Below are positions 26,200 through 57,870 of a DNA stretch of 64,000 nucleotides, in pieces. Numbering within the stretch: the first letter of the stretch is position 1; every line of letters begins with the position of its first letter. Source of the stretch: Octopus vulgaris (taxonomy: Eukaryota); NCBI GenBank assembly GCA_951406725.2, contig OX597835.1, forward strand, positions 1,488,001 through 1,552,000, written 5' to 3'. Made by a program: the position numbers and the translations under genes. The notes under the pieces are model-generated. The model worked only from the letters and a program-made list of their open reading frames with translations, did not search any database and had not been told where the DNA came from.

Positions 26200-26300
26200 T
26201 GTGTTTGTCGGGATTTACCTGCTGAGGATGGCAAGACGTGCGGATGCGCATGCGCCGCCGTATTAGAATCTTGAGGGCCGTGCGCTCGGAAAATGGCGGA
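26200..26300 (+). promoter_or_regulatory. CpG-rich promoter/5' region of the PWWP2-like gene with NRF1-type and YY1-type motifs
   Basis: TGCGCATGCGC at 26245-26255 matches the NRF1 consensus. AAAATGGCGG overlapping the start codon matches the YY1 consensus. Confidence 0.6.
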
Positions 26301-26444
26301 CGAGAGACGGGGGCACCACCAAGCCGTTTGTAAAGGCGAGAAATTACCTGTATTCATCGAGGAAGCTATCGAGGATGTCCTCATCGTGTGCTTGGAGGCC
26401 GGCGCCAAGAAATACCGCGGTGTTCTGGTCGATTCCGACAAAAG
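26293..26444 (+). CDS. PWWP2A: PWWP domain-containing protein 2A/2B-like, coding exon 1
   Basis: MADERRGHHQAVCKGEKLPVFIEEAIEDVLIVCLEAGAKKYRGVLVDSDK resembles the PWWP2 N-terminal motif (IIEDALVV...GVLMD). Donor AG|GTAAGC, phase 2. Not in the ORF track. Confidence 0.85.
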
Positions 26445-26832
26445 GTAAGCTCAAATATTTTAATTATTCTTTGGGCCAGAGCTATCGTATTGAAATGTTG
26501 TCAAAAAGTGTGACGACAGCTGACTTTTCCTGTCAGCGTCCGTGTCTGCTATTTTTGGCTATTTTCATATTTCCATTTCTCTCTCTTTCAATGTTTTGCC
26601 CTTCTTCAATCTTCTGCCCAACATCTTTGCACAACAACGGTGCCGTTGATAAACATATAGAGATGCACACACATTTTTAAAAAAACCTTCTACCCATTTG
26701 TTTTAAGTAACAATGAGTCGGTCATTCGGCTCCGACCGCCGACGAATCTGTTTTTGTGTATCAGGCGAATCATTGAAACATCTTTCGAAACTGCTACTGA
26801 ATCAGTAAGTTCCAACGGGAATGAAATAAATG

Positions 26833-26874
<42 letters not shown>

Positions 26875-26915
26875 TATATACTCTCTTATAGTATGTGTGT
26901 GTGTCTGTATTGTAA

Positions 26916-26949
<34 letters not shown>

Positions 26950-27101
26950 ATAGGTGTGTGTGTATATAGATATTTATAGATATATCCTTATTATTACTAT
27001 TATTATATGTGAATGAATGTATATGTGTGTCTGCATGGTCCCACACCTCCCAGATTCACCTATTCAGCTTAATTAAATCCACAATTTGTTTCTTGTTGCA
27101 G

Positions 27102-29385
27102 AAGTTTGCCCCACGGTGTATGTTTCCCGTTTAAAAGGGATTCCAATGATGACTCGTCAGATAGTAAAAGTGACACGAACGTTGGGTGTACCGAGAAGGG
27201 AGATCAGAATGTTCAGATCTCTGCTGCGGCCCTTCGGCATACGTACAATCAGGATTTTTCACAGTTCGGCGAAAAGGTTGTAGCATTGACCAAAAGGACG
27301 TACACTAGACATTTCAAAGACAAGACTGTGCGAAGTATTCGCCTTAGACCTCGTCAAACTCTGTGCTCCAAATGCAAGTCGGCATGCCATGACAGTGCGG
27401 CAGATCCGAGTTCTTCCATTGCTAAGAGCTCTCAGAACTCTTCACTGTCTTCTGTTTCACAATCTTCTTCAAACTCTCTTCACTCTCTTCCATCCCGGCT
27501 TTCAACACCCACATCTCTTAAACCACTACTTCTCCCACCGCCGCCGCCGCCGCCTCCACCACCCCCACCACAATTTCCAGCCCCTTTGCCTCTGACCACA
27601 CGTAACAACCAAAACACTCGAAACAACACTCTCATGTTCAATGCACGTAGTAGATCCCCACCAATAACCAGAAACCGGCAACAAAATACCCCGCTCTCTT
27701 CCCCCAAAACTAATCGGTATTGCCAACCGCCTCCTTCTCCAAAACCATCACGTTATAGTCAACCACCTCCTTCACCAAAAACTACAAGGTACAACCAGCC
27801 CCCACCATCTCCAAAAACCACACGATACAGTAGCAACCAGCCACCTCCATCGCCCCGGGCAACACGATACAATCAGCCACCCCCTTCACCTAAAAATACA
27901 TATTACAATCAACCACCACCATCACCCAAGAACTCAAGGTATGCCCAACCCCCTCCATCCCCCAAGCCCTCTCGTTACAACCAGCCTCCACCCTCACCTA
28001 AATCTTTACGTTACAACCAACCACCACCATCACCTAAGCCTCCTCATTACAATCAGCCACCACCATCTCCACGCAATTCTCGTTATAGCTTACCACCACC
28101 ATCACCTAAACCCCCTCGCTTCAATCACCCTTCTCAATCTCCTAAACCTCCACGCTTTAATCAACCCCCACAATCTCCCAGACCAGTAAGTTCCCCAATA
28201 ACCCTCCCCCTACCACAAGCCCAGGTTCAGCTGGAACCTCTGAAACTCACAGAACATCCAGAAACAAGGAGTGAGTCTCGAAAGAGGAAAAGCTCTCTGG
28301 CCGAGGAGTATGTGCCTACTAATGATAAACTGAACCCTAAATCTGAAGGACTGACCATTGTGAAATCTAGTCCAATTATAAAAATATCAGTTGGTGAGGG
28401 GACTGTGCTAAAAATTCCTCCTCGCCTTCATTCTGAAGTAGTGGATACAGACCAATCTTCAGATGAAAAACTTGAAAATAAAGAATATTCAAGTCATAAA
28501 AGATTGAAAAAAGCTTTAAAGAAAGCCAAGGAGAAGCTGAAACGGGTAGACTCTGAAAATGGTGATAAAATCTCGTCAGGTCATCACCGAAAGCACAAGC
28601 GGAAGCATAAACATAAACATGCTTGTGCGGATATAGATCGTAATTTACCAGCTCTAGGTGTTGACAAATCAAACAGAGAGGAAAATGACTTTGAAACTGA
28701 GCCGACTGATTCTGAGATGAACGACCATCAGCGGCCTCGGTTGTTATACACTTGGCGGCGAAACAGCGGTTTATCACGGGTAGAATCGGAGAGTTCAGCA
28801 AACACCATATCAGGAGATTTAAAAAATGAAAAATCCACAGTAAATCTTTTGCTTGATAATTCTTTAGAAACGAAATCGGAATCCTCAGGCGAATCGACGG
28901 ACGGTTTTAACTCAAACTCAGCTAACGGGATATCTGATTCGGACTCTGATTACAGGGATGAATATGAAGAGCAAGAATTCCCAGGGAGTCAGTCACCCAC
29001 GTCTGATTCCCTGAAACCTCTCATGATGAAAATTCAAACTAAAACTGTTACAAAAGTTGAAACTTCTGAGGGTCGTATAATTCATGTTGGAGATATTGTC
29101 TGGGGTAAGATTCAGGGCTTTCCCTGGTGGCCAGGACGAGTCCTCTCCATTACTGTAAGTACACGAGACAATGGAGTTGTGATAGCTCAGCTGGCTCACG
29201 TCTCGTGGTTTGGGTCCTCCACTATGTCACATATGCAGTGTGTCGATTTATATCCATTTTTAGAAGACTTTAAACTCCGATACAACAAAAAGAAGCGGGG
29301 TCCTTATAAAGTGGCTATAAAACAGGCAACTGTGGCTGCCAAGAGTTTCCTTGGAAATATCAAAATGGAAGATTTTGAATTGTGA
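27102..29385 (+). CDS. PWWP2A: PWWP domain-containing protein 2A/2B-like, coding exon 2 (total 811 aa)
   Basis: Acceptor TTTCTTGTTGCAG|A is in phase with exon 1 (KR-SLPHGV). PWWP2 motifs IRLRPRQTLCSKCK and IIKISVGEGTVLKIPPR. C-terminal PWWP domain VGDIVWGKIQGFPWWPGRVL...VSWFGS...PFLEDFKLRYNKKKRGPYKVAI. Stop TGA at 29383-29385. Confidence 0.92.
27715..28185 (+). repeat. Coding tandem repeat, 13 units of about 36 bp (RYNQPPPSPKxx)
   Basis: Counted from the translation. Units are diverged at synonymous positions. Confidence 0.95.
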
Positions 29386-30754
29386 CCACTATTGGTATCT
29401 TCACAGTCCCTTTCTTTTTTTTTTAAACATAGATTTTATCATCTGGATCCTATCTAATCTGTTGCTTTAGCTTAACATGGCTTTCATTCATTTGGTTCCA
29501 TTTTATTCTACAAAATGGAACCAATCTGTTGTTTTATTTCAGAAACTTGAAAAAAAAAATGAAAAAATAACAATTATCTCTTGCTCTTGTTTATCTCTTG
29601 CTTTTATTTTTTGCTTTTATTTATTTTTTTAAAATAAGAGATTGTTGATCAGAAAAGAAAATAAGGAAACAAAATTTCCTGCCAAGTTAATCTATATTGC
29701 TACAAATTATCGTTATGTAACTTGGGGTTTCGGAAAAGCAAAACAGTAAATTCCTGTAACACATTTATAGATGGAATTTTCAAGTTTATAGGTTGTAAAA
29801 AATTTTCTGTCATTGCAAAGTAAAACCGTTTTTTAAGTACACACATACTTACACAATATAAATTAGTTACACCCTATCTGTGAATTCACACTCTATTTGT
29901 CTTTCTCGATACTTATGCATCACATAACATGTGGTGTACATGTCTATCAAATGTTTATGTAGACATGCATGGAATTGGCTTCTGCACATTTATGCATGTT
30001 ACATATTCTCATATATACAATCACATTTCATTCAATACTCTAAAATTAGGTTTGACTTCTGCTCATCCTCTGGCCCTAATGGATAAACCCTTTCCTTGTA
30101 CCATTGGCCAAGTTTTCTAATCTGGTATATTTCTTATTTAGCAGGATGTAAGCATTTATTAGTCCATTCAGTGCTATTGCAAATCCTCATGTTTATAACA
30201 CTTTGTAATTTTGATAAATTACATCTCTCAAACACACACATTTTAAAATTCTTATACAAGAATTTTGTTGACAGTGACTTTGAAGTTTTGGCCATCTAAA
30301 CCATCGTTGGACTGCAATGCTTTAGGATTAGTTTTGCCTCTGTTGAGTTAAAATCGTCTTTGGGTGTGTGGGTTTGAGTGGGGTGGTAAACGATGGCTTA
30401 TCTGACCGAAAACTTCCAAGTCACTGTCAACAACATTCTTGTATAAGAATAATAAATTAGTTCTCTCCAAGAGTATAGAGTTACCCATCAGATTAATGTA
30501 AAATTGTTTCTATCATAACTGGACATTAGGGCGGAGAGCTGGCAGAATTATTAGCACACCAGACAAAATGTTTAGCAGTATTTCGTCTGAGTTCAAATTC
30601 TGCCAAGGTCGACTTTGCCTTTCATCCCTTCGGGGTCAACAGGTTAAGTACCAGTCAAACACTGGGGTCGATGTGGTCAACTATCCCCCTCCCCACAAAT
30701 TCCAGGCCTTGTTCCTATAGTAGAAAGGATTATAACTGAACATAAAGACAAACA

Positions 30755-30790
<36 letters not shown>

Positions 30791-38541: not shown

Positions 38542-38711
38542 TATGTATGTATATATATATATATATGTATGTATATATATATATATATATATGTATGTAT
38601 ATATATATATATATATATGTATGAATGTGTATATGTATATATATATAAATATGTATATATATATACATGTATATATATAAATGTATATATACATGTATAT
38701 ATATATGCATA

Positions 38712-40276
38712 TAGGCGTAGGGGTCCACCAAGTATCAGTCCTCAGCCTCGTCTTATTCATCATAGTCCTCCAGGCAATAACAGAGGAATTCAAGACAGGA
38801 TGCCCCTGGGAGCTCCTCTATGCTGATGACCTTGCTCTAATTACTGAGTTACTGTCAGAACTAGAGGAAAAGTTTCAGGTGTGGAAGCAAGGATTTGAAT
38901 CGAAGGGCCTTAGAGTGAACTTAGCTAAAATCAAAGTCATAATAAGTAGGAAGGCAGACAAAGCACAAATCCCTTCAGGTAGATGGCCCTGCTTCATCTG
39001 TAGAAAAGGCATAGGTAGAAACTCCATAAGATGTACCCAGTGTAAGCTATGGACACAAGAAGTGCAGCAATGTCAAAGGAAGGCTAACTATGAAGATAGG
39101 TTTTGTGTGTGGCAAATAAATGTTCAGGGGCAGTAAACACTGAAAATGTGCAGAAAACAGCTTGTATCACATGCCAGGGGCAAAACCTAGAAGTAGTTGA
39201 TAGCTTCCGTTACCTAGTCAGTAGCAAGAGTAGATGCTCTGAGAGTGTAGCTGCTAGAATAAGAATAGCCTGGGCGAAGTTCAGAGAGCTCCTACTACTG
39301 CTGGTAACAAAGGACCTCTTGCTCAGAGTAAAAGGTAGACTGTATAACGCATGTGTGTGAACAACCATGCTACATGGCAGGGAAACATGGGCTGTGACTG
39401 TTGAGGACATGCGCAAGCTTGTAAGGAATGAAGCCAGTATGCTCTGCTGGATGTGTAATGTCAATATGCATATACGACAGAGCTTAAGTGCCCTGAGAGA
39501 AAAGTTGGACCCAAGAAGCATCAGATGTGGTGTGCAAGAGAGACGACTGTGCTGGTATGGTCATGTGGTGAGAATGAATGCGGACAGCTGTGTGAAAAAG
39601 TGTCACACCCTCACAGTTGAGGGAACCTGTGGAAGAGGGAGACCGAGGAAGACCGGGGATGAGGTGTTGAAGCAAGACCTTTGAATGTTGGGCCTCACCA
39701 AGACAATGACAAGTGACTGAGACCTTTGGAAATATGCTGTGCTTCAGAAGACCCAGCAAGCCAAGTGAGACTGTAACTGTGGCCTATGCCAGTGCAGCAT
39801 AACCAGTCCATTTCAATCATTGAGGAATAAACTGCATTTGCGAAAACCTGTTGAGGCAAGTGAAGTTGTTGTGGCCGATGACGGTACCACCTGATTGGCA
39901 CCCGTTCTGGTGGCACGTAAGGAGCACGATTTGAGCATGGTTGATGCCAGTGCCGCCTGACTGGTGCCATGCTGGTGGCATGTAAAAAGCACTATTCGAG
40001 TGTGATCATTGCCAATGCTGCCTGACTGGCTCCTGTGGCAGTGGCATGCAAAAAGCACCATTAAAGCGTGACTGATGCCAGTACCGCCTGACTGGTCCTC
40101 GTGCCAGTGGCATGTAAAAAACACACCACTCGGAGTGGCTGGCATTAGGAAAGGCATCCAGTTGTAGAAACATTGCCAGATCAGATTGGAGCCTGGTGCA
40201 GCCTCTGGCTCTCCAGACCTCAGTCAAACCATCCAACCCATGCCAGAATAGAAAGTGGATGTTAAACAATGATGAG
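38712..40276 (+). mobile_element. RTE-clade LINE, 5'-truncated and degraded, with 3' UTR and (GAT)n tail
   Basis: [87 protein letters not shown]. Frameshifts and stops are present. Confidence 0.9.
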
Positions 40277-44526: not shown

Positions 44527-45930
44527 TGTAGCAAGGGCCATCAAGGCTAAAGGGAACAGGGCAGAGTTATATTCCCTCGTTCGGTTGTCAGTAGGTGGCG
44601 CTTTGATGCTACTTCTGCTAGAGAGGTATAAGATCCCTTGTTGAATATCCAGTCTTTCTCTTTTTCTGTTTCCCCTTCTGGGCAGGCAGCTTATGACTGC
44701 CCACACAGCTAGGACCGCTAGCTCTCTTTTATTCCTGGCCATGACAACTACCACGCTATGTAGCTAGAACAATGCTCACTCTCTATTCTTCCAGCATGAA
44801 CCTTTAACCCTCAATGACTACTGGCTTAATTACTAGCCACACCGACTGACTAAATTCACTAATGAGGGAACAAACAGTTTGTATACCTTTGTTACACATA
44901 ACCTTGTCTGAATGTTGTTTGTTACATACACATACACACAACACTAAACAAATGAACCAGACTAATGCCTGATTCTATCCTAAAATGCTGAGCCCAACAT
45001 GCAAATATTCACGTGGAATATTCTCTCAAAGAGAAATTTGTGTGGAGTTGACATGTGCCTGATTCTTCTTCCTCACTGTTTCTAAGACGGCCTACTTGAA
45101 ATGGCATATTTTTCTTCTTCGTGCCTATCCTTATCCAACATTTCCTGTACCCAGGAGCAACATGCAGCATTCTTCTATTCCCATTTTTAGCGGTAATGTC
45201 TATCTCTGGTTTGCTCAGGAAGAAGCTTACTTTGTGGTGAGCAATATTCAGTCCAGCCGGCAGCAACTAAACATTTTACTCAACACCATTCCTTTTGCTT
45301 TAGCCATTCAACTCAAAGACCTGATTACTGATACACTACACAACATGACTTATTCATCTATAAAGTGCAAAGTACTTCGTAGGACGTCTCTTTCCACAAA
45401 GCACCATTTTCAGACTCTTATCAATGACGAATATTTGGGAAACAGAAGACTGACAGAATTTCATTGTCGCATCTGGGACCTACGTGATGTAGCTCCAGAA
45501 GACAGTTCCCTGCTTAAGCAGCCCTTTTTCCTGTGCTTACCCCCACAAGTTCAGGCAATTTTGGTGCCCATTGTCAACGGAAGTTCGGTGGAACAGATTG
45601 CTAATTTGGCTGATAAGATTATGAAATTCTCAAGAAATTCGCTTGCGGCCGACAGAATCGTTGTTGTGTCTTCTCCATTGATGGCTACATCTCCTACAGA
45701 CTGCATCTCTACTCAGTCAGCAACTTTAGAAGCCATTTTAAATCTGACCAAGCAAGTCAAGAGGTTGTGTCCATCCCAAAGTTTCCAGCATCACAGTTAT
45801 TCAACCAGTCATAGCCAGAGTTCTTTGTTGCACGCCTTGCCACATGATTTTTGTTGGTATCATGACTGTTTTTTTGCAAAGGCATGGAAATACCTTCCAC
45901 CATGTTCGTATGTGTGCCAGGAAGATACAA
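44527..45930 (+). mobile_element. Ty3/Gypsy LTR retrotransposon remnant (gag with probable decayed 5' LTR)
   Basis: ORF 45096-45980 has PIFSGNVYLWFAQEEAYF, QLKDLI, YSSIKCKVLRRTSLS, LGNRR, LKQPFFLCLPPQVQAIL, LADKIM and CWYH..F..KAWK..PPCS, typical of invertebrate Gypsy gag. No pol follows. The LTR boundary is uncertain. Confidence 0.75.
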
Positions 45931-46019
45931 AAGAAGATATAAACAAATATTACAGGCATCCCCCCATATACACACACTAAATAAACATAGACGCACATAG
46001 AGATATACGCATGCACAAA

Positions 46020-54941: not shown

Positions 54942-55452
54942 CCGTAAATCCTCGAGTATAGTCCGCCCTTGAGTATAATATGCAGGGGATTTTTAAGGGG
55001 CTGTGCCTCTGAAAACCTAGACCTTATGTATAATATGCACCCCTTCTCTAACTTGAGTCAAGGAGGTCTATATACTGTCCTTGGTTTGTAAAACTGTATA
55101 CGGTAACGTCTTTTATTATTTTGGTATATATAACATAATGCAAACGTGTAGCTTTTTTGTGCATTTTGTTTGCAGAAAATAAAGAAATAACAGTAATAAC
55201 GTTTAATAAATGATGCTTACTGCAAGTTATGGATGATTCTTTTATGACTTCATTGCTTTCAGGCTTAGCTTAAGGTATTTTCACGCCCGACATCACAAAA
55301 TGCATCTGAATAAACATTGCCGGACAACAAATAGAGACTCGGACATTGCTTAGAAAATGATTTTCATTTTTAACCTTGTATATAGTACGCACTAGAGATT
55401 TTGACCTTTAAATTTTTGGAAAAAAATGTGGATTATACTTGAAGATTTACGG
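54942..55452. mobile_element. Tc1/mariner (pogo/Tigger-like) MITE with TA TSD
   Basis: TA|CCGTAAATCCTCGAGTATAGTCCGC ... GTGGATTATACTTGAAGATTTACGG|TA. Confidence 0.8.
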
Positions 55453-55485
55453 TATGTAAAATCATATGTAGAAGTTTATACTTAC

Positions 55486-55713
55486 TTGTAAGAACAGCAG
55501 TATGGCGTGCACCACATGCGACTTTGGCTACAACAATATCCTCTTCCTTGTCATCAGGTGGCAGCACTAAATATGGCAGAGCTTGAATTGTTACAGCATC
55601 GTTCTTTTCACTGCAATCGTCAGTAATTTTAAACTCATGATCCAAATTTTTCCTACACAGGATGCCAAGTTGTCCACATTCATTCCATCCCCACATGTAC
55701 AAATCTCCAAACT
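55486..55713 (-). CDS. RCCD1: RCCD1-like internal exon
   Basis: TTTGGCAG|AG to A|GTAAGT. EFGDLYMWGWNECGQLG...KVACGARHTAVLT is an RCC1 repeat. Phases match both neighbours. Confidence 0.9.
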
Positions 55714-55839
55714 CTGCCAAATACAAAAAAGAAAAATAAGAGTTGAAACAGATTATCATCCTTTTATGTATGCTTTCCAGGCTGGCATGGGTCGGATGGG
55801 TTGTCTAAGTTTGAGTCAGTTCATACTTGAAGTCACTTC

Positions 55840-57164: not shown

Positions 57165-57669
57165 GTGTATTGTACAGAATGTTCATTGTACATCTCAACA
57201 AAGACTGAAGGCTGCAGCATCTTCAATAAGCTGACAAAAGAGGCAACGAAATACAACAATGCAACATCAACAGAAAATATGAGGTAAGTTGTGGAAGAGG
57301 GAGATGCAGGAAGACATGGGATGAAGTATTGTAGGTTGATCTCAAAACGCTGAACCTTACAAAGGAGATGAGAGAGGACCATGATGTGGGGTGCATTGCC
57401 TTATTTGGAAAGAGCTGCCCACCACAACAGAATTGAGATCCTAAAACCAAGGTTCCACATAAAATAGCACTGGTGCTGCTGCCAAATAAAAAGCACCCAG
57501 TACACTCTGTAAAGTGGCTGGAGTTGCGGTGGGCATCCAGCTGTAGAAACCAGGCCAAAACAGACTATGGAACCTGGTGTGGTTCCTGTCCTTGCCAGTT
57601 CCTGCCTAGCTGTCAAACCCATGCCAGCATGGAAAACGGACATTAACTTAGTGTTGAAGATGATGTTAC

Positions 57670-57794
57670 CTGACACTGCAGCTGAATGCCAATTTCCTGA
57701 AGCTATTAGTACCATTCTGACACCTTCCAATGCTTCAATAACTTTGGGTTGCCCACAGATGTCTTCTGTGGTGCCATCACCAGTTTGTCCTCGG
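57670..57794 (-). CDS. RCCD1: RCCD1-like internal exon
   Basis: TTTTGACAG|C to G|GTAAC. SRGQTGDGTTEDICGQPKVIEALEGVRMVLIASGNWHSAAVS aligns with the RCCD1 GQLG...EALQG...AAGGWHS repeat. Confidence 0.9.
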
Positions 57795-57870
57795 CTGTCA
57801 AAATAAGAATTAGAAATATTCTAACTTTCATGTAATAAATATGAGTACGTTAGACATAATTTTATTTTCT

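Follow-up and report, generated by a model that had tools for sequence, protein, structure and literature searches.

The PWWP2 orthologue of Octopus vulgaris harbours a tandem array of 13 units with the consensus RYNQPPPSPKxx, encoded at positions 27715-28188 (+) of the 64,000-nucleotide stretch of DNA that was analysed (the window), in the open frame 27073-29385. The array is collinear with that of a cuttlefish orthologue, its Ser-Pro-basic core is under purifying selection, and all of its Ser-Pro sites score highly for CDK1 and ERK2. We tentatively favour, at somewhat less than an even chance, that the array is a basic disordered chromatin-contact arm that would act as a phospho-dimmer, loosening PWWP2 on chromatin.

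The array and its units

The original prediction had placed a 13-unit array between the conserved motifs LRPRQxLCxKC and IIKIS. Both the array and its placement hold, the flanking sequences being LRPRQTLCSKC (27343-27375) and IIKISV (28375-28392), with an end at 28188 in the present register compared to 28185 before. The units are spaced by 12 residues in 11 of the 12 steps and by 14 in one, which contains a two-residue insertion before unit 4. SP(K/R) is found in 13/13 octopus units, PPPSP in 11/13 and a Ser or Thr at +4 in 8/13, which reproduces the motif counts given earlier. When the residues were shuffled 20,000 times, SP(K/R) occurred 1.3 times on average and at most 7 times, compared to 13 times in the array, and the lag-12 identity stayed at or below 0.30 compared to the observed 0.68. 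As the shuffles never reached either value, the array is not due to chance. Tandem Repeats Finder detected a 36-nt period in part of the array.

The array corresponds to residues 256-413 of the protein. These 158 residues include 24 Lys/Arg, 14 Tyr/Phe and 58 Pro (37%), no Asp or Glu, and only three aliphatic residues, as would be expected of a disordered chain in extended form. The computed net charge is +24, and approximately -2 to +4.5 with 13 phosphates. In an alignment-based model, where the array is represented in only two of 57 rows, the pLDDT of the array was 44-53 and that of the PWWP region mostly 86-96; a single-sequence AlphaFold model had a mean pLDDT of 40.6. The low model scores of the array may count as weak evidence for disorder.

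Upstream of the array lies a poly-proline run (27535..27570, +) of 12 Pro, nine in cuttlefish. A degenerate 'unit 0' (LSSPKT; 27694..27711, +) has its Ser 12 residues before the Ser of unit 1 and is absent in cuttlefish. We also considered an origin of the unit by amplification of the conserved sequence RxTYNQ..PQPPPR, but a Pro run follows the Tyr in only 15/101 homologues and this origin is unsupported. In another frame of the same strand, a His-rich open frame of 173 codons (27668-28189, +) overlaps the array; it is likely a by-product of the Pro-rich codons.

Gene structure and transcripts

The host gene has two coding exons and a joined product of 811 amino acids. Coding exon 1 (26293..26444, +) starts with the ATG at 26293 and encodes a conserved N-terminal block; residues 1-57 are 91% identical to the cuttlefish protein P0121. 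It is followed by an intron of 657 nt (26445..27101, +) of the GT..AG type, with the ends GTAAGC..TTGCAG, and by coding exon 2 (27102..29385, +), which extends to the stop codon and lies in a frame (27073-29385, +) that is open for 770 codons. The splice joint 26445-27101 was present in contigs of five of the eight runs examined, out of 23 runs listed (X1, X5, X16, X7 and X11). In X5, X7 and X11, which belong to three studies, one contig each runs gap-free across the joint and the entire array, and exon 2 is likewise gapless in single spliced contigs. These contigs show that the array is not spliced out, an outcome that would have spoken against the original prediction; it is coding and retained in spliced transcript contigs. 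The runs X15, X19 and X20 were without the joint and covered the intron sequence, like DNA. We deduce expression from the spliced joints in contigs, none of the runs being recorded as RNA.

Two variants were found within the array across runs, at 27819 and 27852, and both are synonymous. The array of the near-identical protein P0002 differs by a single replacement, which brings unit 2 closer to the consensus. A genome search returned one strong copy of PWWP2 and one weak PWWP-like match; PWWP2 is a single-copy gene.

Two further joints were seen in run X16, each in one contig. In the first, a second GT..AG joint (26804-27102) leaves the 5' 360 nt of the intron in place, and an in-frame stop in this part directly follows exon 1. 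This form, seen in one run only, is possibly an unproductive isoform. In the second, a sequence from contig C24 (L011 1501-1535, G000:C24) is joined at window position 27702, near the start of the array. A short C run is common to both sides and there is no AG acceptor, so that this joint is most likely a template-switch chimera.

Elsewhere, the window contains two exons of an RCC1-repeat gene (55436-55804 and 57404-57820, -), a high-copy repeat at approximately 30400-30760, a reverse-transcriptase fragment (RVT_1; 38681-39133, +) and a DUF7041 frame (45063-45977, +). The latter two are likely remnants of mobile elements.

The host protein

The assignment of the host to the PWWP2 family was confirmed. 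The PWWP domain (29089..29337, +; ORF residues 673-755) matches Pfam PF00855 with an E-value of 1.7e-12. A profile of 57 homologues had human PWWP2B (4LD6) as its best PDB match (E 8.4e-61; next best 2e-19), and the hit list of homologues was filled by named PWWP2A/B-like proteins. Within the domain, FPWWP at 724 and SWFGS at 752 have the spacing reported for the human residues F666, W669 and W695 (PMC6191444). Judged from these residues, the F/W/W aromatic cage for H3K36me3 is present, and binding to this mark is predicted.

In vertebrates, PWWP2 directs the deacetylase core MTA-HDAC to active chromatin. The contact of human PWWP2A with MTA1:HDAC1 has been attributed to an R/QPRQ(V/L) motif (PMC6143588). 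The octopus sequence LRPRQTLCSKC (27343..27375, +) is a candidate match to this motif, with a Thr in fifth place, and adds a CxxC; RPRQT, shared by octopus and cuttlefish, agrees at four of five positions, and L-R-P-R and CxxC are invariant across 57 aligned rows. The block from SAAALRHTY to CSKC (27205-27375, 52 residues) is 100% identical between octopus and cuttlefish, and the PWWP region 97%. This block is likely the MTA-HDAC contact surface.

Further downstream, a block with the ends IIKISV and VLKIPPR (28375..28425, +) has nearly invariant columns and is predicted to form a beta-hairpin, with strands in the model. We take its IKIS...VLKIP sequence to resemble the ET-domain- or PP1-binding motifs of the hydrophobic-Lys-hydrophobic type. 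A basic helix and His/Lys run follow (28498..28620, +; model helix H460-482), and this basic region likely has a role in nuclear or nucleolar targeting.

In the internal region of human PWWP2A, a part termed IN is reported to bind linker DNA and a part termed IC to bind H2A.Z nucleosomes (PMC6191444). The H2A.Z binding cited in the original prediction cannot be transferred from vertebrates to octopus, because it maps to the very part of the protein that differs here. PWWP2A has been called vertebrate-specific (PMC6191444) and chordate-conserved (PMC6143588); orthologues with RPR(Q), CxxC and a PWWP domain are present across molluscs, an annelid and arthropods.

Conservation between octopus and cuttlefish

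The cuttlefish orthologue contains 14 units in the same order, and the whole protein is 85% identical to that of octopus. In both species the Ser, the Pro at +1 and the Pro at -3 are invariant and the residue at +2 is always basic, so that SP(K/R) is present in 27/27 units. Pro is found at -2 in 26/27 units and at -1 in 23/27, Tyr or Phe at -6 in 24/27 and Arg at -7 in 20/27; PPPSP is present in 12/14 cuttlefish units. The SP motif is thus conserved in this relative; a highly variable array without SP conservation, which would have spoken against the original prediction, was not seen between the two species.

Matched units of the two species share 9.8 of 12 residues compared to 7.9 for unmatched units, and none of 20,000 permutations of the order reached this score. 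In addition, the 14-residue step, the sequences YYNQ, HYNQ and YSLP and two RFN units occupy corresponding positions in both species. The collinear units and the shared oddities indicate that the array is older than the split of octopus and cuttlefish and has not been homogenised since. This split has been dated to 285-340 million years ago (PMC10925132).

Among the octopus units, mean pairwise differences at codon positions 1, 2 and 3 were 0.25, 0.22 and 0.60, respectively. The far greater divergence of third positions indicates purifying selection on the protein. The pN/pS ratios, computed between octopus units within the species and rough since pS is saturated, were lowest in PPPSP (0.075), higher in the 10-residue core (0.20) and highest in the two spacer residues (0.87). 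Neutral simulations with about the same third-position divergence kept SP(K/R) in 0.5 units on average and at most in 4, and diverged equally at all three codon positions. The codon-position differences and the pN/pS values between units both support the selection at the protein level that was suspected from the octopus sequence. The array is 86% identical between the species in ungapped columns, compared to 74% for the other linkers (Fisher p 0.004, for sites that are not independent). The conserved blocks of the protein, with 91-100% identity, lie above the value of the array. Part of the conservation of the array would accordingly belong to the background of a slow-evolving protein.

Distribution among homologues

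The homologue set comprised 120 proteins listed out of 130 found, and the array was present in two of the 120: P0002, which is 99% identical to the octopus protein, and P0001, which clusters with P0121, a named protein of Sepia (Acanthosepion) pharaonis. It was absent from the other 118 listed homologues, which represent chiton, bivalves, snails, annelid, arthropods and vertebrates; bivalves, gastropods, arthropods, hemichordates and two vertebrates are identified by name, the chiton and annelid proteins by their clusters. The density of [ST]P[KR] per 170 residues was at most 5 in these 118 proteins compared to 14 and 15 in the two carriers. For 99 of the 118 non-coleoid homologues both ends of the linker could be set; it has 55-368 residues there and at most one PPPSP. 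Long linkers without an array are therefore found outside coleoids, and linker length alone is not special.

A search with the array against 1.84 billion representatives gave 32 matches with P0002 as the best. Of the 31 others, 24 were inspected; none was a PWWP2 protein and none contained PPPSP[KR]. A search for more cephalopod orthologues with the array plus flanks (202-644 aa) returned P0002 only, one for shorter proteins returned nothing, and two metagenome scans gave no relative. None of these protein or metagenome searches brought up an orthologue from squid, vampire squid or Nautilus. P0022 was considered as a stand-in for Nautilus and rejected, as it clusters with a chiton protein; in a FastTree phylogeny it is sister to the coleoid pair with a support of 86 and a long branch. 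In the octopus genome itself there were seven other matches to the array. Six of these, once translated, proved to be simple repeats with no relation to the array, and the seventh adjoins one of the six. The search of the representatives also showed P0142, an unrelated protein of 663 aa outside any Pfam family, with 18 SP(K/R) in near-identical 12-mers ending in PPSPK.

Among the homologues seen, the array is restricted to two lineages, octopus and cuttlefish, and on this basis it appears to be coleoid-specific. Wide spread in invertebrate PWWP2 proteins, which would have contradicted the original prediction, was not observed among the listed homologues. The expectation that vertebrates lack such an array agrees with chimpanzee PWWP2B and fish PWWP2A, neither of which contains it.

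Kinase motifs

The Ser-Pro sites were scored with human kinase matrices (PMC9876800, supplementary table 2), three of the approximately 300 kinases being used in full, so that further proline-directed kinases may fit as well. As background served 1,095 S/T-P sites from 118 homologues, which are not proven phosphosites. All 27 sites were at least at the 90th percentile for human CDK1 (medians 98.3 and 98.8) and ERK2 (medians 99.8 and 99.7), whereas 0/27 reached this level for CDK12 (medians 79 and 85). As far as human matrices apply, the predicted fit to MAPK- and CDK1-type kinases is thereby borne out. With regard to CDKs, this agreement extends to the CDK1 score and not to the full consensus, given as S/T-P-x-K/R (PMC12982290): the basic residue is located at +2, and Lys or Arg at +3 occurs in 0/13 octopus and 0/14 cuttlefish units. 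The array nevertheless shows the many S-P sites in favourable context (P-x-S-P, matrix score) by which multisite CDK/MAPK clusters are recognised. The N-terminal columns seen of the CDK9 matrix hardly favour Pro at -2 (1.32). We discarded DYRK1A and HIPK2 as principal kinases since both prefer Arg at -3 (8.09 and 6.74, respectively), which is present in 0/27 units.

Two other motif assignments did not withstand the comparison of species. Priming for GSK3 had been proposed from the Ser or Thr at +4, but this residue is present in 3/14 cuttlefish units compared to 8/13 in octopus, and only three of the eight octopus sites have a counterpart in the corresponding cuttlefish unit. Similarly, the LRP5/6 motif PPPSPxS/T is found in only 3/13 octopus and 3/14 cuttlefish units, with one at a shared unit.

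Possible functions of the array

In the mechanism that we tentatively prefer, the array in its unphosphorylated state would contribute numerous weak contacts with DNA or nucleosomes. Phosphorylation of one site after another by kinases of the CDK1/2 or ERK/p38 type would neutralise the charge of the array, and PWWP2, together with the MTA-HDAC partners predicted for it, would then be held less tightly on chromatin. We infer here the disorder of the array, its contact with DNA or nucleosomes, its phosphorylation in vivo and an effect on HDAC recruitment. The linker net charge is positive in 11/11 homologues scored. The coleoid array also occupies the part of the protein that corresponds to the vertebrate internal region, reported to bind linker DNA and nucleosomes (PMC6191444). 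Against this mechanism, all 27 units lack both a genuine SPKK motif and the complete CDK consensus. Furthermore, the conserved Y-N-Q and the fixed order of the units are superfluous for pure charge and point to a specific reader.

A second explanation is a CTD-like docking platform on which phosphorylated S-P units, periodic Tyr and Pro runs would recruit WW-domain or Pin1-type readers, so that phosphorylation would bring in partners instead of abolishing DNA contact. WW domains and Pin1 read pS-P and PPxY. The invariant S-P, the periodic Tyr/Phe, the poly-Pro run upstream of the array in octopus and cuttlefish and the unit-specific variants, which include one PPxY and two PPxF and are ordered alike in both species, are in agreement with docking. 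However, the units have no likeness to the heptad, a canonical PPxY occurs only once per species, the sites fit CDK12 poorly and the CDK9 columns seen hardly favour Pro at -2. We consider docking possible but not probable. It is compatible with the phospho-dimmer, and both can be true.

The array could also be a stiff Pro-rich spacer or a phosphorylation-independent ligand that sets the distance between the MTA-contact region and the C-terminal modules, the S-P being kept for its effect on conformation. The Pro content, the wide range of linker lengths in the 99 non-coleoid homologues with expansions that lack an array, and the slow evolution of the entire protein are all in accordance with this. 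It leaves unexplained, however, why the Ser is kept in 27/27 units while the Pro at -1 is kept in 23/27, and why the kinase context is near-optimal, and we regard it as rather unlikely. Should the array be a spacer, it would amount to a lineage-specific repeat of the usual sort within a disordered linker.

It is less probable still that Tyr and Arg act as stickers that gather PWWP2 into condensates on chromatin, to be dissolved by phosphorylation. An Arg-aromatic pair recurs every 12 residues (Arg at -7, Tyr/Phe at -6) and model confidence is low, but there are only 14 aromatic residues in 158, the Pro content is high and the charge is of one sign. High Pro and one-signed charge disfavour self-condensation in the absence of nucleic acid. 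Finally, a relay of LRP5/6 type or primed by GSK3, linking PWWP2 to Wnt/GSK3 signalling, is suggested by the frequent PPPSP and the octopus +4 residues, but it is very improbable and already largely refuted by the cuttlefish sequence, the spacer positions being near neutral and the host being nuclear by family and no membrane receptor.

Extending the phospho-dimmer further, PWWP2 might have acquired at the coleoid stem a repeat phospho-dial through which ERK and CDK signalling would exert direct, graded control over a NuRD-type deacetylase module. Signalling, such as that of neuronal activity, would thus be linked to histone deacetylation in cephalopods only, with each unit preserved for approximately 300 million years. 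We consider this scenario speculative and improbable.

Significance

The PWWP2 family, the annotation of the cuttlefish gene and the multisite proline-directed phosphorylation of disordered linkers were already known. The array itself appears to be undescribed so far. No literature joining PWWP2 or PWWP2A with octopus or cephalopods was found, in a search that did not cover subscription journals or bioRxiv supplements. Searching for nuclear PPPSP repeats with proline-directed kinases surfaced Wnt/LRP reviews, and a search for PWWP2 phosphorylation in mitosis gave nothing on the subject by title. Novelty in cephalopods has mostly been looked for in expansions of gene families, whereas here a candidate regulatory novelty that can be tested cheaply lies inside a core chromatin gene.

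Comparison with known systems

The octopus protein shares with vertebrate PWWP2A and PWWP2B the aromatic cage of the PWWP domain, the RPRQ with CxxC, the IKIS block and the N-terminal block. It differs from chimpanzee PWWP2B and fish PWWP2A in possessing the array. The internal region of human PWWP2A, reported to bind linker DNA and H2A.Z (PMC6191444), has no evident likeness to it.

LRP6 is an example of PPPSP motifs phosphorylated by GSK3 and MAPKs (PMC8134664). As in the PPPSPxS motifs of LRP5/6, the PPPSP core of the array is repeated and could be phosphorylated by proline-directed kinases (PMC8134664). Unlike these motifs, the array mostly lacks the second Ser/Thr, has a basic residue at +2, is strictly tandem and belongs to a chromatin reader.

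With the C-terminal domain of RNA polymerase II the array has in common the tandem repeat, the periodic Tyr, the invariant Ser-Pro and the location in a nuclear protein. The repeat of that domain is a heptad of the YSPTSPS type. In contrast, the unit of the array is a 12-mer with one acceptor, and the array is internal, strongly basic and a poor fit to CDK12, with units that are conserved individually.

Sperm histones of sea urchins and hydrozoans are likewise chromatin proteins with tandem Ser-Pro-basic motifs that arose in single lineages (PMC9903204). There the motif is reported as SP(K/R)(K/R) (PMC9903204), whereas a second basic residue is found in 0/27 octopus and cuttlefish units, which moreover are 12 residues long and contain Tyr, Asn, Gln and three Pro. 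In these histones, phosphorylation of the SPKK repeats has been reported to block DNA binding (PMC9903204). The array itself is not SPKK; by analogy, the sperm-histone repeats may serve as a precedent for the principle that phosphorylation of tandem Ser-Pro-basic motifs switches off contact with DNA.
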